Of a stretch of DNA of 64,000 bases, positions 17,675-27,763 are shown piece by piece. The notes beneath the pieces are model-generated. The model had not been told where the DNA came from. It saw only the letters and a program-made list of their open reading frames with translations, and did not search any database. The position numbers and the translations under genes were made by a program. Numbering within the stretch: position 1 is the stretch's first letter; each line of letters begins with the position of its first letter. Source of the stretch: Candidatus Omnitrophota bacterium (lineage in GTDB: Bacteria; Omnitrophota; Gorgyraeia; Gygaellales; Profunditerraquicolaceae); contig JBEKSD010000002.1 of assembly GCA_049517335.1 (NCBI GenBank), forward strand, positions 78,523 through 142,522. Direction: 5' to 3'.

Positions 17675-19099
17675 ATGAGGAAACATTTAATATTAGTTCT
17701 GGCATTAGCGTTAGTAGCCGGCTTAACCGTTGGCGCCTACGCTGAAGTCCAGAATGTAAAGTTAAGCGGAGACCTAACAGTCTTGGGCTTATCCCGCGAC
17801 TTATGGATTACTTCTCACCCCGCTGAAAATACTCTGGCGAGCATTGCCCGTTTAAGAGTTGATGCTGACTTAACGGATAATGTCATAGCCACGGTAAGGC
17901 TGATCAATGAAAGATATTGGGGAGCAACGATGGAGACAGGAAGTACTTCTACGAGCGATATGTCAGAAAACACCAATATTGACCTTGATTTAGCCTATGT
18001 AACCTTAAAAGAGTTCCTGTATTCACCGCTGACCTTAACCGTTGGCCGTCAGGAACTGCATTTCGGAAACGATATGATTATTGGTGACGCTTATACCAAT
18101 AACCATGCTTCCAAAGACAGCGTATTCAATAATACCATTGACAAAGATTTAAGTATGCGCAAATCATTTGATGCTATCCGCGCAACCTTAAATTATGACC
18201 CCTTGGTTATTGATGTTGTAGGCGCGCAAATTAGAAAAAACTATACAACTTATACGAATATAGCGGGTTATACAACTAATGCCTTAACTAAAGATGACCA
18301 GGAAACCCTCATTGGTATGAACGCTAATTACGCTGTTAGTAAAACAACAGACGTAGAAGGTTATTTCTGGAGTAGAAGAATAGGTAAGGATTCTATTACT
18401 GCCGGCAACAAACAAGACACGACCAATGTCGCTGGTGCGCGCATCGTTACCAAACCTATTACAAACTTGACTTACCAATTAGAAAGCGCATTTGAGTTTG
18501 GTAGAAATACGGTTAATACCAATACTTACACTGACCTGATAACCGCCGCTCCTTCTAAGGACTTGCAGCGCAGGGCTTGGGCACTTGAAACATCAGCAAC
18601 TTATGACTTTAAAGACTACAAGAAGATTGGCCAGTATAAGCCGACAGTAACCGCGCTTTATGCTTATTTTAGCGGTGACAGAGGTTCCGGAAGCGGTAGC
18701 AAAACCAACGGCGCTTGGGATCCGATGTATGAAAACCAGAAGTTCGGCGACATCGCCAATGCAGCATTCAACATGAGCGACGGACACACAGCAGGCGGTA
18801 TCGTAACAATGAAGCCTGTTGATGATGTCATGTTAAAAGGCGAATATTATGCTTTTTGGTTGGATAAGAGATATGCCGATGGCCAGCAAGTTGCCGTAGT
18901 AGCAACCGACGAAGTTGCAACGATGACCCATAAGAAATTCGTAGGACAGGAACTTGACCTTTCAGCAACCTATGACTACACTGAAGATGTGCAGTTCGGC
19001 ATCCTCGGTGGTATGTTCTTCACCGGCTCAGCTCTCGCAAAAGATAACAACCGTAATGTGGCAAGTGAAGTTATTGGTTCAATGAAGGTAACATTCTAA
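17675..19099 (+). CDS. outer-membrane beta-barrel protein (porin-like)
   Basis: 474 aa; cleavable signal peptide (AYA-EV); alternating amphipathic strands; C-terminal aromatic residue (..MKVTF). Confidence 0.55.
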   Translation: MRKHLILVLALALVAGLTVGAYAEVQNVKLSGDLTVLGLSRDLWITSHPAENTLASIARLRVDADLTDNVIATVRLINERYWGATMETGSTSTSDMSENTNIDLDLAYVTLKEFLYSPLTLTVGRQELHFGNDMIIGDAYTNNHASKDSVFNNTIDKDLSMRKSFDAIRATLNYDPLVIDVVGAQIRKNYTTYTNIAGYTTNALTKDDQETLIGMNANYAVSKTTDVEGYFWSRRIGKDSITAGNKQDTTNVAGARIVTKPITNLTYQLESAFEFGRNTVNTNTYTDLITAAPSKDLQRRAWALETSATYDFKDYKKIGQYKPTVTALYAYFSGDRGSGSGSKTNGAWDPMYENQKFGDIANAAFNMSDGHTAGGIVTMKPVDDVMLKGEYYAFWLDKRYADGQQVAVVATDEVATMTHKKFVGQELDLSATYDYTEDVQFGILGGMFFTGSALAKDNNRNVASEVIGSMKVTF

Positions 19100-19168: not shown

Positions 19169-20734
19169 ATGCTATATCTTGCTTTCATCTTCCACATGCA
19201 CCAGCCATACTATAAGGATCTCCTCACCCAAGAGGCAGAGCTTCCGTGGGTGCGGCTGCACGGGGTCAAGGATTACCTTGATATGGTGCAAATCTTGGGG
19301 CAATTCCCGAAAATTAAACAGAACTTTAACCTTGTCCCGTCACTACTGGAACAAATTGAAGGCTACGCAAACGACACTTTAAAAGATAAATTCCTTCAAT
19401 TATCCTCTAAGCCCACAAATGAGCTCAGTTCTTCCGATCAACAATTCATACTTGATAATTTCTTTTCTATAAATATAGAGAAAGTCATCGCAACGCACCC
19501 GCGGTATTATGCTCTCTATTTTAAGCGCCTTAATAAAGAACAATTTACTGAACAGAACTTTTTAGACCTGCAGGTTTGGTTTAATTTAGCCTGGATTGAC
19601 CCCTCATTTAGAAATGAGATAGCTGAATTAAAGAAACTTATACGCAAGGCCCGTTTTTTTAGCGAAGAAGACAAGCAGGTTGTTTTAAGCAAACAGGCTG
19701 AAATCCTACAAAATATAATCCCTGTGTATAAAAAATTTATGCAGTCAAAACAGGTTGAATTCACGGTAACGCCTTATTACCACCCCATTCTGCCGCTTCT
19801 CTATAATACAAACATAGCAAAGGAAGCTAACAGCAAAACCATCCTGCCAAAAGTTAAATTTTCTTATCCGCAGGACGCAGAAACCCAGATAAATTTAGCG
19901 GTTGATTACTTCAAAGCAAAATTCGGCTCAGCACCAGTTGGTATGTGGCCATCTGAACAGGCGATAAGCGAACACATATTGCCTTACATAATTAAATCCG
20001 GAATAAAATGGATTGTCTTGGATGAAGCGATATTATTTAAGTCCCTAAGAAGAAAAAAGAGGGATACTAACCTGCTTTACCAGCCGCATTTTATAAAGAG
20101 AGAGGAAGGTGAGCTTTCAATAGTATTCCGCGACAGGAATTTATCAGATTTAATCGGATTTGTATACCATAAGTGGACAGCGGAAAACGCAGTTTCAGAT
20201 TTTATCAGGCACCTTGAGGAGATTGCCTCAAGTTTTAAAGACAGGGATATTTTGGTAACTATTGCTATGGACGGGGAAAACGCGTGGGAATATTATTCAA
20301 ATGACGGGCATGATTTCCTTCAGCTGCTTTATCAGAGGCTTTCGGAATCAAAGATGATTCAAACAACAACGGTAAGCGAATATTTGAATCTTAAGCCTAC
20401 TGCATTAAAAATTGACAGGCTTGCCGCCGGCTCATGGATTTTTGGGGAATTCGGAAAATGGATAGGCAATCCGAAAAAGGCGAAAGCGTGGGAATACCTT
20501 GCTAAAGCCAGGCAAGAGCTAGAAGAAATCAGAACAGGAATTAATTCCAGCTCCGCCAATATAAACTTCGAACTTGCATGGAAACAAATGTATATTTTAG
20601 AGGGGAGCGACTGGTTCTGGTGGTTTGGCGAGGATCCCGATGGCAGTTTTGACCGCCTTTTCCGCAGGCATTTAACAAACTTCTATAATATAATAGGTAA
20701 GGAAGCCCCAGAATATACAACTCGCCCCTTATAA
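19169..20734 (+). CDS. Glycoside hydrolase family 57 protein (alpha-glucan branching/amylase-type)
   Basis: 521 aa; N-terminal FHMHQPYY GH57 signature; internal GEF(G)KWIG and WFWWFGED-like motifs. Confidence 0.75.
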   Translation: MLYLAFIFHMHQPYYKDLLTQEAELPWVRLHGVKDYLDMVQILGQFPKIKQNFNLVPSLLEQIEGYANDTLKDKFLQLSSKPTNELSSSDQQFILDNFFSINIEKVIATHPRYYALYFKRLNKEQFTEQNFLDLQVWFNLAWIDPSFRNEIAELKKLIRKARFFSEEDKQVVLSKQAEILQNIIPVYKKFMQSKQVEFTVTPYYHPILPLLYNTNIAKEANSKTILPKVKFSYPQDAETQINLAVDYFKAKFGSAPVGMWPSEQAISEHILPYIIKSGIKWIVLDEAILFKSLRRKKRDTNLLYQPHFIKREEGELSIVFRDRNLSDLIGFVYHKWTAENAVSDFIRHLEEIASSFKDRDILVTIAMDGENAWEYYSNDGHDFLQLLYQRLSESKMIQTTTVSEYLNLKPTALKIDRLAAGSWIFGEFGKWIGNPKKAKAWEYLAKARQELEEIRTGINSSSANINFELAWKQMYILEGSDWFWWFGEDPDGSFDRLFRRHLTNFYNIIGKEAPEYTTRPL

Positions 20735-20781: not shown

Positions 20782-21345
20782 ATGGATAAGAAGGATATTT
20801 ACGAGCATCTGGCTAAAATATATCTTGATGCTTCGTCCACAAAAAAGAAGAAAAATAAAGTTTACTCCAAAATATTCAAAAATCTTTTCTTAATCAGCCT
20901 TGTGTGTGTTTTTGGATTATCCACCGTTTTGCTTTCAAATTTACGCAGGCCTAAGATAAATAATTCTGAAGTTGCCCTCATCTTGGCTCCTGAAGCCTTA
21001 AAAATCAACTTTAATTTTGACCCCGCTAAAAAAGAAACTCTTACCCTTGATTTAAACCGACTTAATTTAAACAATTACAAAAGAATCGCCTTTTCGGTAA
21101 AGAAACTGGATATTTCCAACACAATCGCTTTAAGGGTTGAATTTATAAGCGCGTATAAAGAAAGATCGGAAGTTTACCTGAAAAATATCCCTAGCAAATG
21201 GCAGGATTATACGTTTAATCTTTCTGATTTTAAGAATATAACTGATTGGTCGGAAACAAAAAATTTATCTTTTACGGTTGAAGAATGGAATACGAAAGAG
21301 AATAAAGGAATAGTTTATATAGATAACGTTAGAGTATTAAAATAG
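20782..21345 (+). CDS. hypothetical single-pass membrane protein with a CBM/CIA30-like beta-sandwich domain
   Basis: 187 aa; basic N-terminus, TM helix, C-terminal pattern ending IVYIDNVRVLK typical of carbohydrate-binding modules. Confidence 0.4.
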   Translation: MDKKDIYEHLAKIYLDASSTKKKKNKVYSKIFKNLFLISLVCVFGLSTVLLSNLRRPKINNSEVALILAPEALKINFNFDPAKKETLTLDLNRLNLNNYKRIAFSVKKLDISNTIALRVEFISAYKERSEVYLKNIPSKWQDYTFNLSDFKNITDWSETKNLSFTVEEWNTKENKGIVYIDNVRVLK

Positions 21346-21358
21346 AGAGGAGTGTTAG

Positions 21359-22495
21359 ATGCGTATAATCTGCGTCACCAATCAAAAGGGCGGGTGCGGT
21401 AAAACCACGACAGCGATTAATCTGGCTGCGTCTTTATCCTTAAATGACAGGAAAGTATTGCTAATTGACCTTGACCCGCAGGCGCACGCTACTTTAGGCC
21501 TGAATATAAAAGCAGACTTAAGCATCTATAACGTCTTATCCAAAATTACCAGTAAGAAAGCTCAGCTGGAAGAAATCATTAAAAACGTAAACCCTAATTT
21601 TGACATAGCGCCTTCTGGCATGATTTTGAGCACCTTAGAACAGGAGTTGGCAGGAGAAATCGGAAGGGAATCGTGCCTAAACGATACCATTAACAATTTT
21701 AAGGGCTCTTACGATTACCTGATAATTGATTCGCCCCCCAATCTGGGGATTTTGACGGTTAACGCCATACGCGCCTCAAGCGAGGTAATCATCCCGGTTG
21801 AAGCAAGCCGTTTTTCCCTGGAAGGAGTGTCCCAGCTTTTAAGTATTATTGAATTGATTAAAGACCGCCTGAACCATAAGGTCAGGCAGCGGGTTTTAGT
21901 CGCTAATTTTGATTCGCGCCTAAGGCATTCGTTTGAAATGCTGAATAAGATAAAAGCTGATTTTAAGGATATATTGTTCAGCAATATTGTGCACGTAAAC
22001 GTAAAACTGAAAGAAGCGCAAAATTCGGGGACGCATATTTTCAATTTTGACAAGTATTGCCGGGGCGCCAAAGATTATTTCAGCCTGAGCCGGGAAATTA
22101 TCACCGCGGAAACCGAAGTTCCTGAAAAATTCCCCACGGAGCTTAAGGATATTGTAAAAAGATTCACCGAGAAAAAAATGGCTAAGGTGGAAAAACGCCT
22201 TAACGAGATATTAAAGGAGGAACTGCCTAAGCTTAATGAAGTGGTGTTTTCAGTATCCGCACCGGCCGCAAAAGAGGTATTCCTTGTTGGTGAATTCAAT
22301 AATTGGAAGGCGGATGAATCCGGGAAGATGAATAATGTTGACGGGACCTGGATAAAAAGCCTCATGCTTCATCCGGGGAAATACCGTTACCGCTTTATCA
22401 TTGACGGCTCCTGGACAGAGGATGAAAAGAACCCGCTTAAAGAAAGCAACCCTTTCGGTACGCTTGACTCATTTGTTGAGGTAGAAAAAGCATGA
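21359..22495 (+). CDS. ParA/MinD-family ATPase fused to a C-terminal AMPK-beta/CBM48 glycogen-binding domain
   Basis: 378 aa; deviant Walker A NQKGGCGKTTTAINLA, LIDLDPQA, IIDSPP; C-terminal 90 aa VFLVGEFNNWKADESGKM...GKYRYRFIIDGSWTEDEKNP align with the AMPK beta GBD/CBM48. Confidence 0.75.
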   Translation: MRIICVTNQKGGCGKTTTAINLAASLSLNDRKVLLIDLDPQAHATLGLNIKADLSIYNVLSKITSKKAQLEEIIKNVNPNFDIAPSGMILSTLEQELAGEIGRESCLNDTINNFKGSYDYLIIDSPPNLGILTVNAIRASSEVIIPVEASRFSLEGVSQLLSIIELIKDRLNHKVRQRVLVANFDSRLRHSFEMLNKIKADFKDILFSNIVHVNVKLKEAQNSGTHIFNFDKYCRGAKDYFSLSREIITAETEVPEKFPTELKDIVKRFTEKKMAKVEKRLNEILKEELPKLNEVVFSVSAPAAKEVFLVGEFNNWKADESGKMNNVDGTWIKSLMLHPGKYRYRFIIDGSWTEDEKNPLKESNPFGTLDSFVEVEKA

Positions 22496-22818
22496 ACGCT
22501 GGAAGAGAAGAAAAAGAGATACAGGAGGGAAAGTTTTTTGCCATAATTTCGTATTTAAGCTTCCTGTGTATAATTAGCCTTGTCTTAAAAAAAGACAACA
22601 AATTTTCCCTTTATCATGCCAAGCAGGGCCTTGTGCTCTTTGTTTTTGAAGTCGGCTCTTTCATATTAACCATTATCCCTATTTTGGGAGGCGTAGTGAG
22701 GGTACTCAGCCTGATAATTTTTATCCTTGCTTCCCTTTGGTGTATCTTGCAGGTTTTAATGGGCAATTACAACCGTCTGCCCGTAATCTCAGAGATAGCG
22801 GATAATATTACAATTTAA
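22492..22818 (+). CDS. small membrane protein (DUF4870-like)
   Basis: 108 aa; two TM helices and YHAKQGL motif; 4-nt overlap with the parA-like gene. Confidence 0.5.
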   Translation: MNAGREEKEIQEGKFFAIISYLSFLCIISLVLKKDNKFSLYHAKQGLVLFVFEVGSFILTIIPILGGVVRVLSLIIFILASLWCILQVLMGNYNRLPVISEIADNITI

Positions 22819-22829
22819 GGAGGTGGGAT

Positions 22830-23201
22830 ATGCCTTCAAAAAAGAAAACAATAGGAAAAAAAACGGTAAAGAAAAAGGCAGTAAAGAGGAAACCGGCTGG
22901 GAAAAAAACAGGTAAGAAAACGGTTAGGAAAGTGCCTGTTGTAAAAAAACCGAAAAAAGAACCCATCATAGGTAAAGTAACGCATTATTTCCCGCACGTA
23001 CGCGCGGCTGTAATCAAATTAAAGGCGCCCTTGGCAGTAGGAGATACCGTAAAAATTAAAGGCCACACAACGGATTTTAACCAGAGAGTCTCATCCTTAC
23101 AGATAGACCGCACGCCAATAACCGAAGCAAAAAAAGGACAGGAGATCGGCCTTCTTGTGGATTCACGGGTAAGGCAACATGATGTGGTAATCAAAATTTA
23201 A
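22830..23201 (+). CDS. Lys-rich N-terminal tail plus EF-Tu-domain-2-like beta-barrel protein
   Basis: 123 aa; the first roughly 45 aa are K-rich GKKTV(K/R)K repeats; C-terminus VGDTVKIKG...EIGLLVD resembles a translation-factor beta-barrel domain. Confidence 0.45.
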   Translation: MPSKKKTIGKKTVKKKAVKRKPAGKKTGKKTVRKVPVVKKPKKEPIIGKVTHYFPHVRAAVIKLKAPLAVGDTVKIKGHTTDFNQRVSSLQIDRTPITEAKKGQEIGLLVDSRVRQHDVVIKI

Positions 23202-23222: not shown

Positions 23223-23405
23223 ATGAGGCTTTTGGCAATTGAAAAGAAAGCGAAGGATTTAGGTATCACTGATACCTGGAAATACTCCAAGAGTGACTTA
23301 ATTAAGCTTATCCAGAAGAAAGAAGGCAATCAGGAGTGTTTTGCCACAAAATCGCGTTCAAAATGCAACCAGTTTATTTGCTGCTGGAGGGCTGACTGCA
23401 CATGA
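23223..23405 (+). CDS. small protein with Rho_N/SAP-like N-terminus and C-terminal Cys cluster
   Basis: 60 aa; LLAIEKKAKDLGITDTWKYSKSDLIKLI then C-x7-C-x4-CC-x4-C. Confidence 0.35.
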   Translation: MRLLAIEKKAKDLGITDTWKYSKSDLIKLIQKKEGNQECFATKSRSKCNQFICCWRADCT

Positions 23406-23587
23406 AATATCGCTGCCAGATCTGTGACAGGGATATTGACGATTATGTCAGCATTGCCCATATAAAGGCCGAAGAATATCTTATTGATCTTATTCAAAAA
23501 GACCATCCGGAATGGCACGAAAGCAAGAAAACCTGCCATAAATGTATCGAATATTACCGAAAATTAGTTAAAGAAAACGAAATTTAG
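23402..23587 (+). CDS. small zinc-ribbon protein
   Basis: 61 aa; CxxC ... CxxC; ATGA overlap with the preceding small ORF. Confidence 0.4.
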   Translation: MKYRCQICDRDIDDYVSIAHIKAEEYLIDLIQKDHPEWHESKKTCHKCIEYYRKLVKENEI

Positions 23588-23592
23588 ACAAT

Positions 23593-23628
23593 AAACCGGG
23601 GTCGGAATTAATTCCGACCCCGGTTTTT
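23593..23628. terminator. Perfect 28-bp palindrome flanked by A3/T5 (bidirectional terminator-like); founding copy of a palindromic element family
   Basis: AAACCGGGGTCGGAATTAATTCCGACCCCGGTTTTT immediately after a stop codon. Confidence 0.65.
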
Positions 23629-23696
23629 AACCTTATTTCTGAGTATATACTCATATTAACCCCAGCGTTAAAAGTAAGTAAGTTCGAGTAAAGTAA

Positions 23697-24035
23697 ATGC
23701 AGTTACAAGGAAGGCCCAAAAAATATAGGATTGTGCGCACAGACCCCAAAATTAGCCAATTTAGCCCAAGGGGCCGTCCAGGAAGGCCTAATGAAGCGGA
23801 TCTCACTATGGATGAGTACGAAGCCATACGGCTTTCAGATTATATGGGATTATCCCAGAAAGAAGCCAGCCAATCAATGCACATATCCCAGCAAACTTTC
23901 AGCAGAATCCTGAAAAAGGCCCGGAAAACAATAGCAAAAGGGCTGATTGACGGAGCAACTATAAAGATTCAGGGCGGCCAGTACGTAGTTACATCCCACA
24001 AAGATTTCCAACCAAATTCCTACAAAAAACTCTAA
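23697..24035 (+). CDS. DUF134/UPF0251 family putative DNA-binding protein
   Basis: 112 aa; N-terminal GRPKKYR...RGRPGRP and an HTH-like segment. Confidence 0.6.
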   Translation: MQLQGRPKKYRIVRTDPKISQFSPRGRPGRPNEADLTMDEYEAIRLSDYMGLSQKEASQSMHISQQTFSRILKKARKTIAKGLIDGATIKIQGGQYVVTSHKDFQPNSYKKL

Positions 24036-24346
24036 AATTCCGGTAAATACAAGTAAACAACTATAGACGCTGAGCCTCAAAAGCGGTCGACTTGGTACCA
24101 AAATCGCTATTTGCTCAACTTCCTATAATATACATTATGTTAACTTGATGATATTGAGAAAATTACCTTATCTTATTCTATCCCAATAGGTTATATTATA
24201 TTGTTTTTATGCTGTGGATAAGTCAAAAACCGTTTCCTTAAACTTACTTCTTTTTTAAAAGGTTGATATTCCGGTGGGATTACTTTCATTTTCCTATAAG
24301 GTTTTTTTGCGTTTAATCGCTTATTTCATCTTGCGGGTAAAACTGA

Positions 24347-24670
24347 CTATGGCAGGATAGATTGAGTTTTCTCCAAAGCGGTCGCGTTAATCCGGTCTAC
24401 GGCTTTCAATAAGCCCTCCCTCCGTTTTTGCTCAAAAAACAAGACAGGGTAGCTTTCTCGGCAAAGCTCCCACTCCCAGAGCCCTGATTTCAGGGGTTCT
24501 AGGGCCTGTTTTAGCCAGTATTTTAAGGGATCTCTGGAAATCCCTATAACTTCATTGATTGCATGAGTCGAAGTTTTCTGAGCTGAAAAACTGCCTATTT
24601 CCGGGCCATTTAGCCAAAGATGAATGGTAAAACTAAGGAGATTTTGCTCCCTGAGCTGCCTGGTAACCAT
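24347..24670 (-). CDS. orphan hypothetical ORF (possibly a gene fragment)
   Basis: 107 aa; no recognisable motif; followed by about 310 nt of AT-rich non-coding DNA. Confidence 0.25.
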   Translation of the reverse strand: MVTRQLREQNLLSFTIHLWLNGPEIGSFSAQKTSTHAINEVIGISRDPLKYWLKQALEPLKSGLWEWELCRESYPVLFFEQKRREGLLKAVDRINATALEKTQSILP

Positions 24671-24803: not shown

Positions 24804-26522
24804 TTATTTTGGGAGTTTTTTTAAGCTATATAAAGCTGCCTGATTTGCGGGATCTATTGTTAATGTTTTCTGCCACATCTTTCTTGCTTCATCATAATTA
24901 TTCATTTTAGCATAAGTAATCCCAAGCCCGTTATATGCCTCAGGGTATTCTTTATTTAATTCTACGGCTTTTTCGTAATACCTAATCGCATCTATATATC
25001 TTCCGTTTTGCCCTACAGCGCTGGCTAAATTATTCCATGCCCTATAAAAATTAGGGTCTAAATCCAAAGCTGCCTTAAACTCCTCAATGGCTTCTGCGGT
25101 CATCCTTTTATTGAAATAACATTTACCCAATTCATTATGGTCTTCCGCATAATTCTTATCTAAACTTACCGCGATTTTATACTCTTTAATCGCTTCATCC
25201 AATAAACCTCTTTCAACATAAAAAGCGGCTAAGGTACTATGAGGCAGGGAATTGGTAGGATATTTATCTACCATATTCATCCAAAAAATAATATTGTTTT
25301 TATAGTAGAAATTACCCGTGAACGTAAAAATAGCATAAAAAATAATAATAGCTATTGCTATATTCTTAGAAAACTTCGAAATTAGCAACGCAAGGATCAA
25401 ACAAAAACCTACTGCCGGTAAATATAAATAACGGGGGGCAATGTAATTTGATAACGGGTATATTATGTTAGAAACTGGAATAAGACAGGCAAAGAACCAA
25501 AATACCCCAAATGCAACCAAAGGAAGCTTCTTATGCAATTTAAACGTAGTAAAAACAATTGATATTATCAATAAAACCGAAATTATAACTTTCAGGTTAA
25601 GTAACGAGTATGAAATTAAACCTGGATCATCCGGCAACGTAGAATGAATATTAACGGGAAAGAACATCCATTGAACATATCTGGCCAAAACCCTTAGCAT
25701 GGTAAGAATATTTGTATATAAATTCCTCATTGGGTATGTAATTAACGGATTATCAATGCTAGCCATTACAAAAAACCTGATAAAAATATAAAAAATCAAA
25801 ACGCCTAAATACCCCAAATAATACCTTTTAAAATGAGAAATAACGTCTTTGGGCCTTTTATTCAACAAATAATCGTAACCTAATAAAAGAATAGGGAAGG
25901 TAACAGACATTTCTTTAGAAAATAATGCCAAACAAAAAGAGACTAAAGAAGAGAAGTAAAACAACGCCCTCCTCCCTGCCTCCTCCCCCCTGCTTTTTAT
26001 ATAAAAAATAAAGGCTAAAATATAAAACAAGAAAGCAAGCAGATCCTTCCTAAAAGAAATACAGTTTACTGCTTCTACATTTACAGGATGAAGAGCAAAA
26101 AACAAAGATGCCAATATGGCTACTACCTCATTTCCTACTATTAAGTTTATAAACATGAAAAGAAGCAACGCATTCAACATGTGCAGGATAAGGTTTGTAA
26201 AGTGGTACCCGAAAGGGTTCAGCTTCCAAAAAGAATAATCTAGGAAATAAGTAAAAGTCCCTATCGGTCTGTATGTAAACTCTCCGGAACCTGTATCCTT
26301 TTTTCCAAGATAATCCAAATCCGAAACTTTAGTCAGGTAACTTCTGTTAAAAAGACGGGGGAAATTATTCCAGGATTTGACAAAATCATTATTCACTATA
26401 ACTGTAGAATCATCCCATATAAATGAATTTTGGAGGGAATTAGAATAAGCTAATGCCGTAAAAAACACTATGAATATAATAACCCATTTATTACCGCGTA
26501 AAATTGTATCTTTCGATATCAT
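24804..26522 (-). CDS. multi-pass membrane protein with C-terminal TPR repeats (DUF1736/PMT-like glycosyltransferase architecture)
   Basis: 572 aa; more than 8 TM helices, then 4-5 TPR units (AEAIEEFKAALDLDP, YDEARKMWQKTLTIDP). Confidence 0.6.
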   Translation of the reverse strand: MISKDTILRGNKWVIIFIVFFTALAYSNSLQNSFIWDDSTVIVNNDFVKSWNNFPRLFNRSYLTKVSDLDYLGKKDTGSGEFTYRPIGTFTYFLDYSFWKLNPFGYHFTNLILHMLNALLLFMFINLIVGNEVVAILASLFFALHPVNVEAVNCISFRKDLLAFLFYILAFIFYIKSRGEEAGRRALFYFSSLVSFCLALFSKEMSVTFPILLLGYDYLLNKRPKDVISHFKRYYLGYLGVLIFYIFIRFFVMASIDNPLITYPMRNLYTNILTMLRVLARYVQWMFFPVNIHSTLPDDPGLISYSLLNLKVIISVLLIISIVFTTFKLHKKLPLVAFGVFWFFACLIPVSNIIYPLSNYIAPRYLYLPAVGFCLILALLISKFSKNIAIAIIIFYAIFTFTGNFYYKNNIIFWMNMVDKYPTNSLPHSTLAAFYVERGLLDEAIKEYKIAVSLDKNYAEDHNELGKCYFNKRMTAEAIEEFKAALDLDPNFYRAWNNLASAVGQNGRYIDAIRYYEKAVELNKEYPEAYNGLGITYAKMNNYDEARKMWQKTLTIDPANQAALYSLKKLPK

Positions 26523-26554
26523 ATTTTAAGCCTATTCTTTACAGTATAATTATT

Positions 26555-27763
26555 TTATAAGGATTCAACGATGGCATTATAAACCGTTTCCGGCTTAATT
26601 GTTTTAAGGCACTTATTATCGCTGCAATCAGAATTTCTATGGTTTTGGGCTGATAAGCAGGGTGAACATGGCCAATTTGAGTAAATTATGCGGCTATTCT
26701 TACCTATGGGCCCGAAAACCTGCGGGCTTTCTGGTCCAAAAAGAATAAATTTCTTGATCACAGTAAGCATTGCTAAATGCACCAGTCCGCAGTCATTTGA
26801 AATCAGAACTTCTGAAATAAGGAATAATTCCATAAGTTCTTCTAGTGAAGTTTTTCTGGTAAAATCTATACACCGGGAATTACTGATAGCTCCGCGCATT
26901 AACCCGCTCTTTTTAGTGGCACCTTCGGTTCCTATGATAAGTATATAGTTCCTGCTATCTTGTAATAATAAATTAACAAGTGAAATAAAATTCTCCAACG
27001 GCCACTCCCTTAAAGGCAATACGCCTTCACCGGGATTAATAAGGAATATCCTGCGTTTGCTACCGATACCAGCATCTTTTAATTTCTTTTCTATGCTTTC
27101 TTTAATCTTAACCTTTGAGGCGTATTCCGGGAATACTAATTCTTCTTCAATTATTGCCGAATCTAATTGCGGATGATCTTTGGAGCTCGCTGAAACCGCT
27201 TGGGCAAAAGAAAGATAGGTTTTACTTACATGATTTGAAGGGTTATATTGAATTTTATGTGTGAGGAGGCTGCCTCTATATAACCCTTCAAAAGTATAAT
27301 GATGCAATCCTACTCTCTTTTTAGATCCGGACAGATAAGAAATTATTGCAGAAAAACGCGAAAAGAACTCCAAATCGAAAATAATATCTACGCCTTTTCT
27401 TCTTAATTGCCAGATTATTTTCAATGTATCCAAGACAAAAGTCAGAGGCGTTGTTTCGTCTATCGTAAGGATGTTACTATCCGGTATTATATTTCCGAGT
27501 AATTTAAAAATATCCTTATTTTTATTAAATGTTACAAAAAATACTTCGGCTAAAGGGTATTCTCTTTTTATATGGTTTAAAAGCGGATAGGATAAAATAA
27601 CTGTGCCTAATTCTGGTAGCTTTATAAAGGCTATTTTCTCAGGCGGTTTGTTTATTTTATTTTTTATGCGCAGTATTTTAGAAATATAAACCAGGATACT
27701 TAATAAAAAACATAAGGGTATTCCCAGCCAATAATCTATTTTTCTTGCCTTATCTATGTCCAT
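26555..27763 (-). CDS. Glycosyltransferase family 9 (heptosyltransferase-like)
   Basis: 402 aa; GT9 two-domain layout; C-terminal ...ISNDCGLVHLA... core. Confidence 0.7.
   Translation of the reverse strand: MDIDKARKIDYWLGIPLCFLLSILVYISKILRIKNKINKPPEKIAFIKLPELGTVILSYPLLNHIKREYPLAEVFFVTFNKNKDIFKLLGNIIPDSNILTIDETTPLTFVLDTLKIIWQLRRKGVDIIFDLEFFSRFSAIISYLSGSKKRVGLHHYTFEGLYRGSLLTHKIQYNPSNHVSKTYLSFAQAVSASSKDHPQLDSAIIEEELVFPEYASKVKIKESIEKKLKDAGIGSKRRIFLINPGEGVLPLREWPLENFISLVNLLLQDSRNYILIIGTEGATKKSGLMRGAISNSRCIDFTRKTSLEELMELFLISEVLISNDCGLVHLAMLTVIKKFILFGPESPQVFGPIGKNSRIIYSNWPCSPCLSAQNHRNSDCSDNKCLKTIKPETVYNAIVESL

Follow-up and report, generated by a model that had tools for sequence, protein, structure and literature searches.

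A ParA-type ATPase fused to a CBM48 glycogen-binding module is encoded in a 64-kb stretch of DNA (hereafter, the window) from a Candidatus Omnitrophota bacterium (GenBank assembly GCA_049517335.1, contig JBEKSD010000002.1, positions 78,523 to 142,522). An earlier reading of the sequence alone (here, the original prediction) had proposed that such a fusion positions glycogen granules. In our judgment, there is about an even chance that the protein is a self-contained Soj-type ParA module that is coupled to cytoplasmic glycogen through its CBM48 and that uses an adaptor of its own instead of ParB and parS. The computational evidence consists of the two-domain architecture, the conservation of catalytic residues, glucan-contact residues, and most DNA-contact residues, the pairing of the fusion with peptide-bearing partner proteins, and the enrichment of glycogen genes in the vicinity of its homologs.

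Architecture of the fusion protein

The open reading frame (ORF) of 378 amino acids occupies exactly the coordinates given in the original prediction, and all of the motifs quoted there were found in its translation, namely, KGGCGKTT (residues 10 to 17), DLDPQ (37 to 41), DSPP (124 to 127), and FNNW...GKYRYRFIIDGSWTEDEKNP (313 to 359). Pfam, sequence searches of the PDB, and AlphaFold agreed on the proposed combination of ParA and CBM48. The AlphaFold model, which was built on 51 homologs and had a mean predicted local distance difference test score (pLDDT) of 70, comprises a ParA core (residues 1 to 250), a long charged helix (260 to 288; low confidence), and a beta-sandwich (293 to 375; pLDDT of 78 to 88) with eight predicted strands. 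Its top Foldseek matches were Soj/ParA structures. The linker segment LEKRMNEILKEELPKL is conserved in part in the homolog alignment, and linker length varies among the fusions, being longer in Phycisphaerae-type homologs.

The ATPase domain matched AAA_31 at residues 1 to 175 (E = 1.7e-53) and CbiA (E = 2.8e-18). In the PDB sequence search, its best match (5e-50) was 8RAY, the chromosomal ParA of Myxococcus xanthus (PMC12462528), followed by the Soj proteins of Helicobacter pylori and Thermus thermophilus. The deviant Walker A motif KGGCGKT contains the signature Lys10 together with Lys15, Asp39 lies within DLDPQ, and the Walker B motif is DYLIIDSPP. Residues K10, K15, D39, and D124 are invariant in the 51 homologs, and K15 and D39 are also invariant in the near and far-type fusions that were scored (see below). 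The domain is thus a member of the ParA/MinD (SIMIBI) ATPases with a deviant Walker A motif. None of the NCBIfam equivalog cutoffs was reached by the protein, which scored 107.1 bits on the ParA_partition model NF041546 (cutoff, 180), 59 to 65 bits on the minD models (cutoffs, >200; for minD_bact, 59 versus 213), and 69 bits on cellulose_yhjQ (cutoff, 158).

Distribution of the fusion

The best 120 clusters in a collection of 5.8 billion proteins all had the same two-domain architecture at 66 to 87% identity, and those that carried a name were all from Omnitrophota. When one genome per species was scanned, 584 relatives were obtained, and the best 80 were almost without exception full-length fusions. 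Loci L001 to L041 were from Omnitrophota (44 to 74% identity; n = 41; hereafter, the near loci). Loci L042 to L080 contained full-length fusions at 35 to 45% identity, in metagenome-assembled genomes (MAGs) labeled as Omnitrophota, Planctomycetia/Phycisphaerae, Myxococcota or "delta proteobacterium," Rokubacteria, Eisenbacteria, Thermodesulfobacteriota, and Auribacter. Another 80 full-length fusions were recovered in a separate metagenome scan that used a far-type alignment. Within Omnitrophota, the fusion is apparently near-universal. The database names of the homologs are generic ("AAA family ATPase" or "chromosome partitioning protein").

No fusion was present among 72,556 plasmids (PLSDB), and a role in plasmid partition was rejected on this ground. 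The plasmid ParAs aligned with the ATPase domain only, and the five plasmid CBM matches were amylase or glycogen-binding genes.

Conservation of glucan-contact residues in the CBM48 module

The original prediction had made its reading depend on the identity of the C terminus as a CBM48, and this region scored above the curated Pfam threshold. Residues 303 to 377 matched AMPK1_CBM (PF16561; E = 1.1e-12; 48.5 bits versus a gathering cutoff of 26.8), and CBM_48 (PF02922) was also matched (E = 1.4e-6; 29 bits versus a cutoff of 22.4). The best PDB match of the C-terminal part was the CBM of rat AMPK beta1 (1Z0N; 1e-10), followed by pullulanase, SEX4/LSF1, and branching enzymes. In the structure of Polekhina, N150 of AMPK beta1 is reportedly a glycogen contact. 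Mutagenesis of AMPK beta1 identified W100, K126, W133, L146, and T148 as glycogen-binding residues (PMC2642990).

We compared these positions in an alignment of 77 fusions (75 of them complete) with the AMPK module. The equivalents of W100, K126, W133, L146, and N150 in the window protein are W316, R345, W352, F366, and D370, respectively. Both stacking tryptophans were present in all 75 complete fusions. At the K126 position, all 36 far sequences had K or R, and the near sequences had R, K, or (in 12 of them) Q; the L146 equivalent was F or Y, and the N150 equivalent was N or D; T148 was not conserved across the fusions. Because exactly the contact positions are conserved despite deep divergence (down to approximately 35% overall identity), this pattern, as far as sequences can tell, indicates selection for retained sugar binding. 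The fusion protein lacks a signal peptide, so its ligand must be cytoplasmic and, in practice, glycogen or maltodextrin.

Closely similar CBM48 modules also occur outside the fusion. A large family of proteins of approximately 480 amino acids carries four tandem copies that are 36 to 41% identical to that of the fusion (e.g., P0137 to P0160), and giant multi-CBM48 proteins have up to 18 copies (P0124; 1,812 amino acids). An exhaustive search of representatives with the CBM alone gave 7,774 matches at an E value of ≤1e-3, which were dominated by multicopy CBM48 proteins and were unusable for counting fusions. The C-terminal 126 amino acids alone gave 3 matches against the index of 5.8 billion proteins, a number limited by the word index.

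A conserved peptide on the neighboring gene product

The original prediction had placed the fusion directly downstream of a GH57 gene, but an ORF of 187 codons (orf187) intervenes. GH57 is not the invariant partner of the fusion; that place is taken by an orf187-type membrane protein with a conserved N-terminal peptide (Table 1). The peptide (consensus, (D/E)IYEHLAKIYLD) is the most conserved segment of orf187. In fold, the large domain of orf187 is similar to CBM11/8/30. The protein has a predicted transmembrane (TM) helix and is predicted to be anchored in the inner membrane with this domain in the periplasm.

Nearly every fusion adjoins a gene whose product begins with the conserved peptide. 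In eight divergent loci (L043, L045 to L047, L050, L059, L062, and L080), a longer upstream protein (cluster c11) shares the C-terminal domain of orf187 (hhalign probability, 97.5%; E = 7e-12) and has a related N-terminal motif, LA(D/K)xYF. The partner in most other lineages is encoded immediately after the fusion (gaps of 1 to 24 nucleotides [nt]), and its sequence opens with KLGRGLEDVSHLFLS or a close variant of it. The form of the peptide found outside Omnitrophota (LGRGLEDVSHLFLS) is similar to the N-terminal segment by which ParB activates ParA. In that ParB segment, hydrophobic residues and a central R/K activate ParA (PMC12462528). In our own reading, the residues E-H-L-A-K-I-Y-L-D of orf187 can be aligned position by position with the second half of the far-type motif, E-D-V-S-H-L-F-L-S.

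The pairing of peptide and fusion is tight and specific, which marks the peptide-bearing protein as a dedicated partner of the fusion. Among 1,220 ORFs of the genome set, 51 contained the peptide motif, and 49 of these were immediately adjacent to a fusion on the same strand. In the metagenome set, which was independent of the genome set, six-frame translation (1.27 million residues) yielded 27 occurrences of a strict LGRGLxDVSHLFLS-type motif, 26 of which started immediately downstream of a fusion. The 27th, the sole one outside the direct neighbor of a fusion, belonged to a DUF4912 protein beside a GH57 branching enzyme.

Four unrelated protein bodies bear the peptide, and none of them contains a ParB domain. 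The first is a degenerate ParA/MinD-like protein (c12/c77) with CbiA and AAA_31 matches, in which the Walker A motif is mostly lost. The second (c13) is weakly similar to the C-terminal nuclease fold of NucS (profile E = 8e-4 to 2VLD), and the catalytic E-x-K is not conserved. The TM/beta-sandwich protein of the orf187 type and the DUF4912 protein are the third and fourth, respectively. Neither Pfam nor NCBIfam has a family for orf187, c13, or orf108, a small protein encoded downstream of the fusion. In Phycisphaerae-type loci, no dedicated adaptor was detected.

Glycogen genes near related fusions

Probes for Escherichia coli glgA, glgB, glgC, glgP, glgX, malP, and malQ detected GlgC-like genes in L046 and L047 only, partly because several lineages use GH57 branching enzymes, GT4/5 glycosyltransferases, and DUF4912 proteins, clusters of which were recognized by reading individual loci. 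After the fusion, c12, and c13, locus L057 continues with genes for a stand-alone CBM48 protein, a GH57 protein with BE_C (336 bits on the branching-enzyme model of Thermococcales), a DUF4912 protein, and a glycogen-synthase-like enzyme of the GT4/5 type. The same arrangement of GH57 branching enzyme, DUF4912, GT4/5, and solo CBM48 recurs in L084. The stand-alone CBM48 protein (101 amino acids; AMPK1_CBM, 2e-14; L057:6337-6642, minus strand; approximately +3.3 kb in L084) lies between the fusion module and the GH57 branching enzyme, and its CBM48 is of the same subtype as that of the fusion.

In L051 and L086, a DUF4912 protein with the N-terminal adaptor peptide KKLGKGLEDISTLFLS is followed by a GH57 branching enzyme, and in L052, DUF4912 and a GH57 branching enzyme are found 9.5 kb away. 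This recurrent pairing (L051, L052, L057, and L086) suggests that DUF4912 is glycogen associated; the literature contained passing mentions of DUF4912 only, and no functional study was found. The DUF4912 protein (L051:13725-15608, plus strand; approximately nt 4700 in L086) also has lysine/alanine-rich repeats and a Glucodextran_B-like domain. Elsewhere, a GH13 GlgB that is 48% identical to E. coli GlgB over 734 amino acids is encoded directly upstream of the fusion (L096), and a GlgP-like phosphorylase occurs together with a glycosyltransferase (L105).

In total, the far-type flanks (0.89 Mb) contained approximately 10 glycogen-enzyme genes, versus 1.8 to 2.7 expected under rough assumptions (Poisson P of 2e-5 to 5e-4). 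Counted as independent lineages, there were six versus roughly 0.6 to 1.3 expected. Overall, the excess over this rough chance level was approximately 4- to 8-fold. The association of the fusion with glycogen genes is genuine but sparse. Omnitrophota MAGs have been reported to encode glycogen synthesis (PMC8542988).

Proposed mechanism

Under the favored reading, ATP would drive dimerization of the fusion, and the ATP-bound dimer would bind the nucleoid through the largely retained basic patch of Soj. Since the dimer would present two CBM48 modules on helical stalks, glycogen particles would be held with avidity only in the ATP-bound, dimeric state. Docking of the adaptor peptide at the dimer interface would then lead to hydrolysis and release, and this release would be concentrated at the cell periphery because orf187 is predicted to be anchored in the inner membrane. 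Glycogen would thereby be tethered, spaced, and inherited relative to the nucleoid in an ATP-dependent way. All of the functional elements of this scheme (the binding of glycogen and of DNA, the stimulation of the ATPase by the peptide, the membrane topology, and any positioning behavior) are predictions drawn from sequence, predicted structure, and gene neighborhood. The granule positioning put forward originally is consistent with the architecture and the glucan-contact residues; positioning along the nucleoid would be a further, conjectural step.

DNA binding by Bacillus subtilis Soj is nonspecific and depends on four basic residues, R189, K201, R215, and R218 (PMC6393308). In the alignment of the fusions, the first of these positions never varies, and Omnitrophota retain basic residues at three of the four, with R187, K199, and K216 corresponding to R189, K201, and R218, respectively.

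Several observations weigh against the favored reading. All fusions have a hydrophobic residue at the R215 position (V213 in the window protein), and 12 of 36 far sequences lack a basic residue at the R218 position. With three basic residues kept but R215 lost throughout and R218 lost in part, DNA binding by the ATPase appears plausible but uncertain. The ATPase core is modeled with only moderate confidence, and residues 42 to 70 are of low confidence. The phylum labels are those of the database records, and some are doubtful; fusions in MAGs labeled "uncultured Planctomycetales" show 63 to 69% identity with the window protein and the same gene order, so that the label is probably wrong. Approximately 90% of the far-type loci have no glycogen gene in the available flanks (approximately 9% have one), and the window itself lacks glgA and glgC. 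The predicted periplasmic CBM-like domain of orf187 and the adjoining outer-membrane porin are left unexplained. Finally, what the cargo carries in classical ParA systems is the adaptor and not the ATPase; with the CBM on the ATPase, a role of glycogen as the matrix would fit at least as well as a role as the cargo.

Glycogen as a possible matrix

This last point leads to the main alternative, which we consider unlikely and in which glycogen is the matrix and the system follows the logic of MinD. ATP dimers would bind the glycogen surface bivalently, and peptide partners located at the membrane, on DNA, or on glycogen itself (via DUF4912) would trigger their release. The binding module is part of the ATPase and is C-terminal, as in MinD. 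A DUF4912 adaptor with a Glucodextran_B-like domain beside a GH57 branching enzyme is plausibly glycogen associated and would mirror MinE and MinD on one surface. The occurrence of one adaptor peptide on four unrelated bodies and the erosion of the Soj DNA patch (loss of the R215 equivalent in all fusions and of the R218 equivalent in a third of the far sequences) also point this way. Interchangeable adaptors would comprise orf187 at the membrane, the DNA-binding-like c13, the pseudo-ATPase c12, and the DUF4912 protein of glycogen clusters, an arrangement to which we again assign a low probability. It is similarly improbable, in our estimation, that the system patterns or docks other components on glycogen or links glycogen to the membrane or DNA through the contact between ATPase and adaptor.

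On the other side, the invariant R189 equivalent and the retention of three of four basic residues in Omnitrophota suggest that DNA binding is probably retained, and no member of the ParA/MinD family is known to use a polysaccharide as its matrix. Compared with nucleoid tethering of glycogen, the glycogen-matrix explanation accounts better for where the CBM sits and for the DUF4912 adaptor, and less well for the conservation of R187, K199, and K216.

A possible role in chromosome segregation

The fusion could instead be a chromosome-segregation ParA whose ParB and parS are encoded elsewhere, with the CBM48 coupling segregation or nucleoid organization to glycogen or energy status in an AMPK-like manner. 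The ATPase is closest to chromosomal ParA/Soj proteins, its strong conservation and apparently near-universal presence in Omnitrophota would suit such a role, and the partner peptide of far-type loci is ParB-like. E117 of M. xanthus ParA helps to dock R13 of ParB (PMC12462528), and its equivalent in the fusions (E96 in the window protein) is invariant.

The partition context that the original prediction had named beforehand as contrary evidence was not found, however. A tblastn search with Spo0J combined with the GERRxRA motif detected no ParB in 159 of 160 related loci (1.83 Mb) and none in the window, and there was no parAB operon arrangement. The sole ParB was a genuine ParB/Spo0J C terminus (L162:1-280, frame 3; ...GKITIEFYSLDDFDRITERIGL...) that ends approximately 330 nt upstream of a fusion of the Phycisphaerae type, which is the type with a longer linker and without a dedicated adaptor. 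In this subfamily, the fusion may simply work with the chromosomal ParB, a case that lends the segregation reading some support.

The chromosomal location also differs from that of a partition gene. A 28-bp dif-like site (ACTTCCTATAATATACATTATGTTAACT), which agrees at 25 of 28 positions with the B. subtilis dif sequence, is located approximately 1.6 kb from the fusion gene. It coincides with a change in the sign of the GC skew and a switch of the genes from the plus to the minus strand (region 23500-24350), which indicates that this region is probably the replication terminus; the fusion gene would thus not be near the origin. In 14 other Omnitrophota loci, a copy of this 28-mer with 0 to 1 mismatch follows the fusion gene at a distance of 1.25 to 3.5 kb; in a 15th locus, L003, the copy has 5 mismatches. 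In three divergent loci (L045 to L047), the distance is 5.6 to 9.4 kb. No copy was found within 10 kb in the clade without GH57.

Moreover, the peptide-bearing neighbors (TM protein, pseudo-ParA, NucS-like protein, and DUF4912 protein) lack a ParB domain, and the score on ParA_partition lies well below the cutoff. Some far-type fusions are on multi-megabase contigs labeled delta proteobacterium or Myxococcota (2.97 Mb for L048 and 6.2 Mb for L068), lineages that have canonical ParABS. We therefore regard a role in chromosome segregation as quite improbable.

Possible roles in envelope glycan systems and possible non-sugar functions of CBM48

A third alternative is that the fusion is the cytoplasmic ATPase of an envelope-spanning glycan system, similar to BcsQ or to activators of bacterial tyrosine kinases (BY-kinases), and places a complex of the outer-membrane barrel and orf187 for glucan export or uptake. 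The order porin-orf187-fusion-orf108 is kept even where GH57 is missing, and the large domain of orf187 is CBM11/8/30-like. There is a weak match to CBP_BcsQ (45 bits). The control of BY-kinases by a TM activator with a short cytoplasmic peptide resembles the arrangement seen here. The cluster, however, has no synthase, glycosyltransferase, inner-membrane transporter, or PCP/OPX component, the CBM48 is cytoplasmic, and the partners outside the core Omnitrophota are soluble and not accompanied by a porin. The ParA scores are far above the BcsQ and BY-kinase scores, and membership in either of these families was rejected on scores and context. We judge this explanation very unlikely.

Least probable of all is that the CBM48-like domain is a protein-interaction or dimerization module (E-set/Ig-like) with a coincidental link to glycogen: CBM48/E-set folds do occur in nonglycan contexts (e.g., a weak match to a type IX secretion system plug protein) and most loci lack glycogen genes, but the stacking tryptophans are present in 75 of 75 fusions, polar contacts are conserved across deep divergence, the closest relatives of the domain are AMPK beta CBMs, pullulanase, SEX4/LSF1, and branching enzymes, and glycogen genes are enriched nearby.

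Gene neighborhood of the fusion

The genes from GH57 through orf123 form a tightly spaced array on one strand, with successive gaps of 47, 13, -4, and 11 nt (Table 1).

Table 1 Features of the fusion locus (positions in the window)
Feature	Position	Strand	Remarks
AlgE-like outer-membrane beta-barrel	17675..19099	+	Signal peptide; Alginate_exp, E = 5.9e-24
GH57 amylopullulanase-like alpha-glucan hydrolase	19169..20734	+	Glyco_hydro_57, E = 1.2e-66; no signal peptide
orf187, candidate cognate adaptor/activator	20782..21345	+	187 amino acids; between GH57 and fusion
orf187, N-terminal cytoplasmic helix (predicted), residues 1-18	20782-20835	+	Invariant peptide MDKKDIYEHLAKIYLDAS; K-rich stretch follows
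orf187, TM helix (predicted), residues 30-54	20869-20943	+	
orf187, jelly-roll beta-sandwich, residues 64-186	20971-21339	+	Predicted to face the periplasm
ParA-CBM48 fusion	21359..22495	+	ORF of 378 amino acids
Fusion, ParA/Soj-type ATPase domain, residues 1-250	21359..22108	+	AAA_31 match; PDB and Foldseek neighbors
Fusion, charged helical linker, residues 251-292	22109..22234	+	AlphaFold: one long helix, 260-288; low pLDDT, 45-49
Fusion, CBM48/AMPK-beta-type module, residues 293-378 and stop codon	22235..22495	+	AMPK1_CBM; 1Z0N match
orf108	22492..22818	+	Small; approximately 3 TM helices; start overlaps the fusion stop codon by 4 nt
orf123	22830..23201	+	Lysine-rich N-terminal tail and small EF-Tu-domain-2-like beta-barrel
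Two small cysteine-rich ORFs	23224-23406, 23403-23588	+	End of gene array
GC-rich hairpin	23590-23626		Perfect; A-/T-run flanks (aaaccggggtcggaattaattccgaccccggttttt)
dif-like site	24118-24145	+	28 bp
572-amino-acid multi-TM protein and GT9 gene	24804-27763	-	GC content of 0.34 to 0.36

The neighboring GH57 gene is real and of the amylase type, as had been proposed, but it does not encode a branching enzyme. Its nearest solved relative is the GH57 amylopullulanase of Aquifex aeolicus (8ZYI; approximately 1e-88), which hydrolyzes alpha-1,4 and alpha-1,6 bonds, including those of glycogen, and for which conserved regions have been described (PMC12106739). These amylopullulanase regions are present in the window protein (HMHQP, WPSE, DGENAW, and EGSDW), with WPSE and DGENAW in place of the branching-type WLPECGY and DAELFGHWW. 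Assignment as a branching enzyme was rejected, as BE_C was absent (Pfam) and the score on the Thermus branching-enzyme model was 23.5 bits versus a cutoff of 920. The enzyme is thus predicted to be degradative and not glycogen building, and it is probably cytoplasmic because it lacks a signal peptide. The synteny with the fusion holds in part: GH57 is at position -2 in 26 of the 41 near loci but is confined to one Omnitrophota clade. The AlgE-like barrel lies upstream in 28 of the 41, including the clade without GH57.

Downstream, orf108 is found at position +1 in 22 of the 41 near loci, and orf123 is found in 33. The Pfam matches of orf123 are weak (GTP_EFTU_D2, 3.5e-4; HC2, 0.03), and its tail is histone-H1-like; orf123 may be a nucleoid-associated component of the system or may be unrelated. 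After the cysteine-rich ORFs, the plus-strand array is closed by a hairpin that looks like a bidirectional intrinsic terminator and was not listed by the consensus terminator scan. Promoter and terminator scans of 15.7 to 24.9 kb returned fewer sites than shuffled controls and were uninformative on operon limits.

On the minus strand beside the probable terminus, a gene for a multi-TM protein with C-terminal tetratricopeptide repeats adjoins a GT9 heptosyltransferase-like gene. This region has a low GC content (0.34 to 0.36, versus approximately 0.41 elsewhere) and may be a horizontally acquired envelope-glycosylation island. The 64-kb window contains no glgA, glgC, ParB, or second ParA gene, and its remainder is housekeeping. 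It also contains no bcs genes and no bacterial microcompartment genes, and no min genes are nearby.

Comparison with known systems

The fusion belongs to none of ParABS, MinCDE, McdAB, or BcsQ. In sequence and fold, it is closest to chromosomal ParA/Soj proteins (M. xanthus 8RAY, H. pylori Soj 6IUB, and T. thermophilus Soj 1WCV). Common to it and ParABS are the deviant Walker A motif with its signature lysine, the residues at most positions of the DNA-binding patch, and a partner with a putatively activating N-terminal peptide, which in the far type even has the LGRGL core of ParB. It differs in the added helical stalk and CBM48, in the absence of an adjacent ParB or parS, in partners unrelated to ParB, in the DNA-contact arginine that is hydrophobic in all fusions, in the proximity of the gene to dif instead of the origin, and in a score below the NCBIfam equivalog cutoff.

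As a system, the fusion and its partner are most like the orphan ParA cargo positioners (McdA/McdB, PpfA/TlpT, PomXYZ, and ParC/ParP) and possibly like MinD. With the former, they share a stand-alone ParA ATPase, an adjacent and rapidly diverging adaptor, and a presumed function in spacing or inheritance of a large non-DNA body. The adaptors of McdAB and its relatives recognize the cargo, whereas here the ATPase bears the module for the cargo or matrix; the adaptor bodies (membrane protein, pseudo-ParA, NucS-like protein, and DUF4912 protein) differ as well. Assignment to McdA itself was not borne out, the neighbors being orf187, orf108, and orf123 and the match to the McdA structure being weak (6NOO; 5e-15). 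No polysaccharide cargo of orphan ParA positioners was described in the searchable literature.

As in MinD, the C-terminal extension would be a surface-binding element that is strong only in the ATP dimer, with the activator peptide at the surface. The extension of the fusion, however, is a folded glucan-binding domain of 85 amino acids and not an amphipathic membrane helix, there are no MinC or MinE genes, and by sequence the protein is much nearer to Soj than to MinD. The AMPK beta CBM, the best match for residues 303 to 377, has the same contact residues and is a noncatalytic tether of a nucleotide-dependent regulatory enzyme to glycogen, as the module of the fusion would be. Here, the module is bacterial and is fused to a P-loop ATPase instead of belonging to a kinase complex; K126 is mostly Arg, L146 is Phe or Tyr, and T148 is lost. 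Polyhydroxybutyrate granules are connected to the nucleoid by PhaM and PhaF, bivalent tethers that have no ATPase activity. The outcome proposed for the fusion is the same, that is, a storage polymer kept on the nucleoid for inheritance by both daughters, but PhaM and PhaF act passively and the polymer and the proteins are unrelated.

In agreement with the original prediction, literature searches retrieved neither a ParA-CBM48 protein nor a ParA-type glycogen system, and no report was found that ties a ParA/MinD ATPase to a polysaccharide store.

Implications

Next to nothing is known of how bacteria organize and pass on glycogen, their most widespread carbon store. The general solution for the spacing of other bodies is provided by ParA/MinD ATPases, which act on plasmids, chromosomes, carboxysomes, chemoreceptor arrays, and division sites. 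The fusion family provides a concrete, testable candidate for glycogen, that is, a two-gene module with clear sites for mutation (the two tryptophans, the Walker A lysine, and the adaptor peptide). The presence of one activating peptide on four bodies is a natural experiment in how ParA systems gain new cargos. With a role of this kind, DUF4912 and the orf187 family would be placed in a functional context for the first time. If glycogen proved to be the matrix, the fusion would be the first polysaccharide-based member of its family, a modular adaptor-swapping system in at least six phyla in which adaptors join the stored glycogen to the membrane, to the nucleoid, or to the machinery of its own synthesis. 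Omnitrophota are poorly understood and include ultra-small cells, and because the fusion is apparently near-universal in the phylum, it probably matters for their cell biology.

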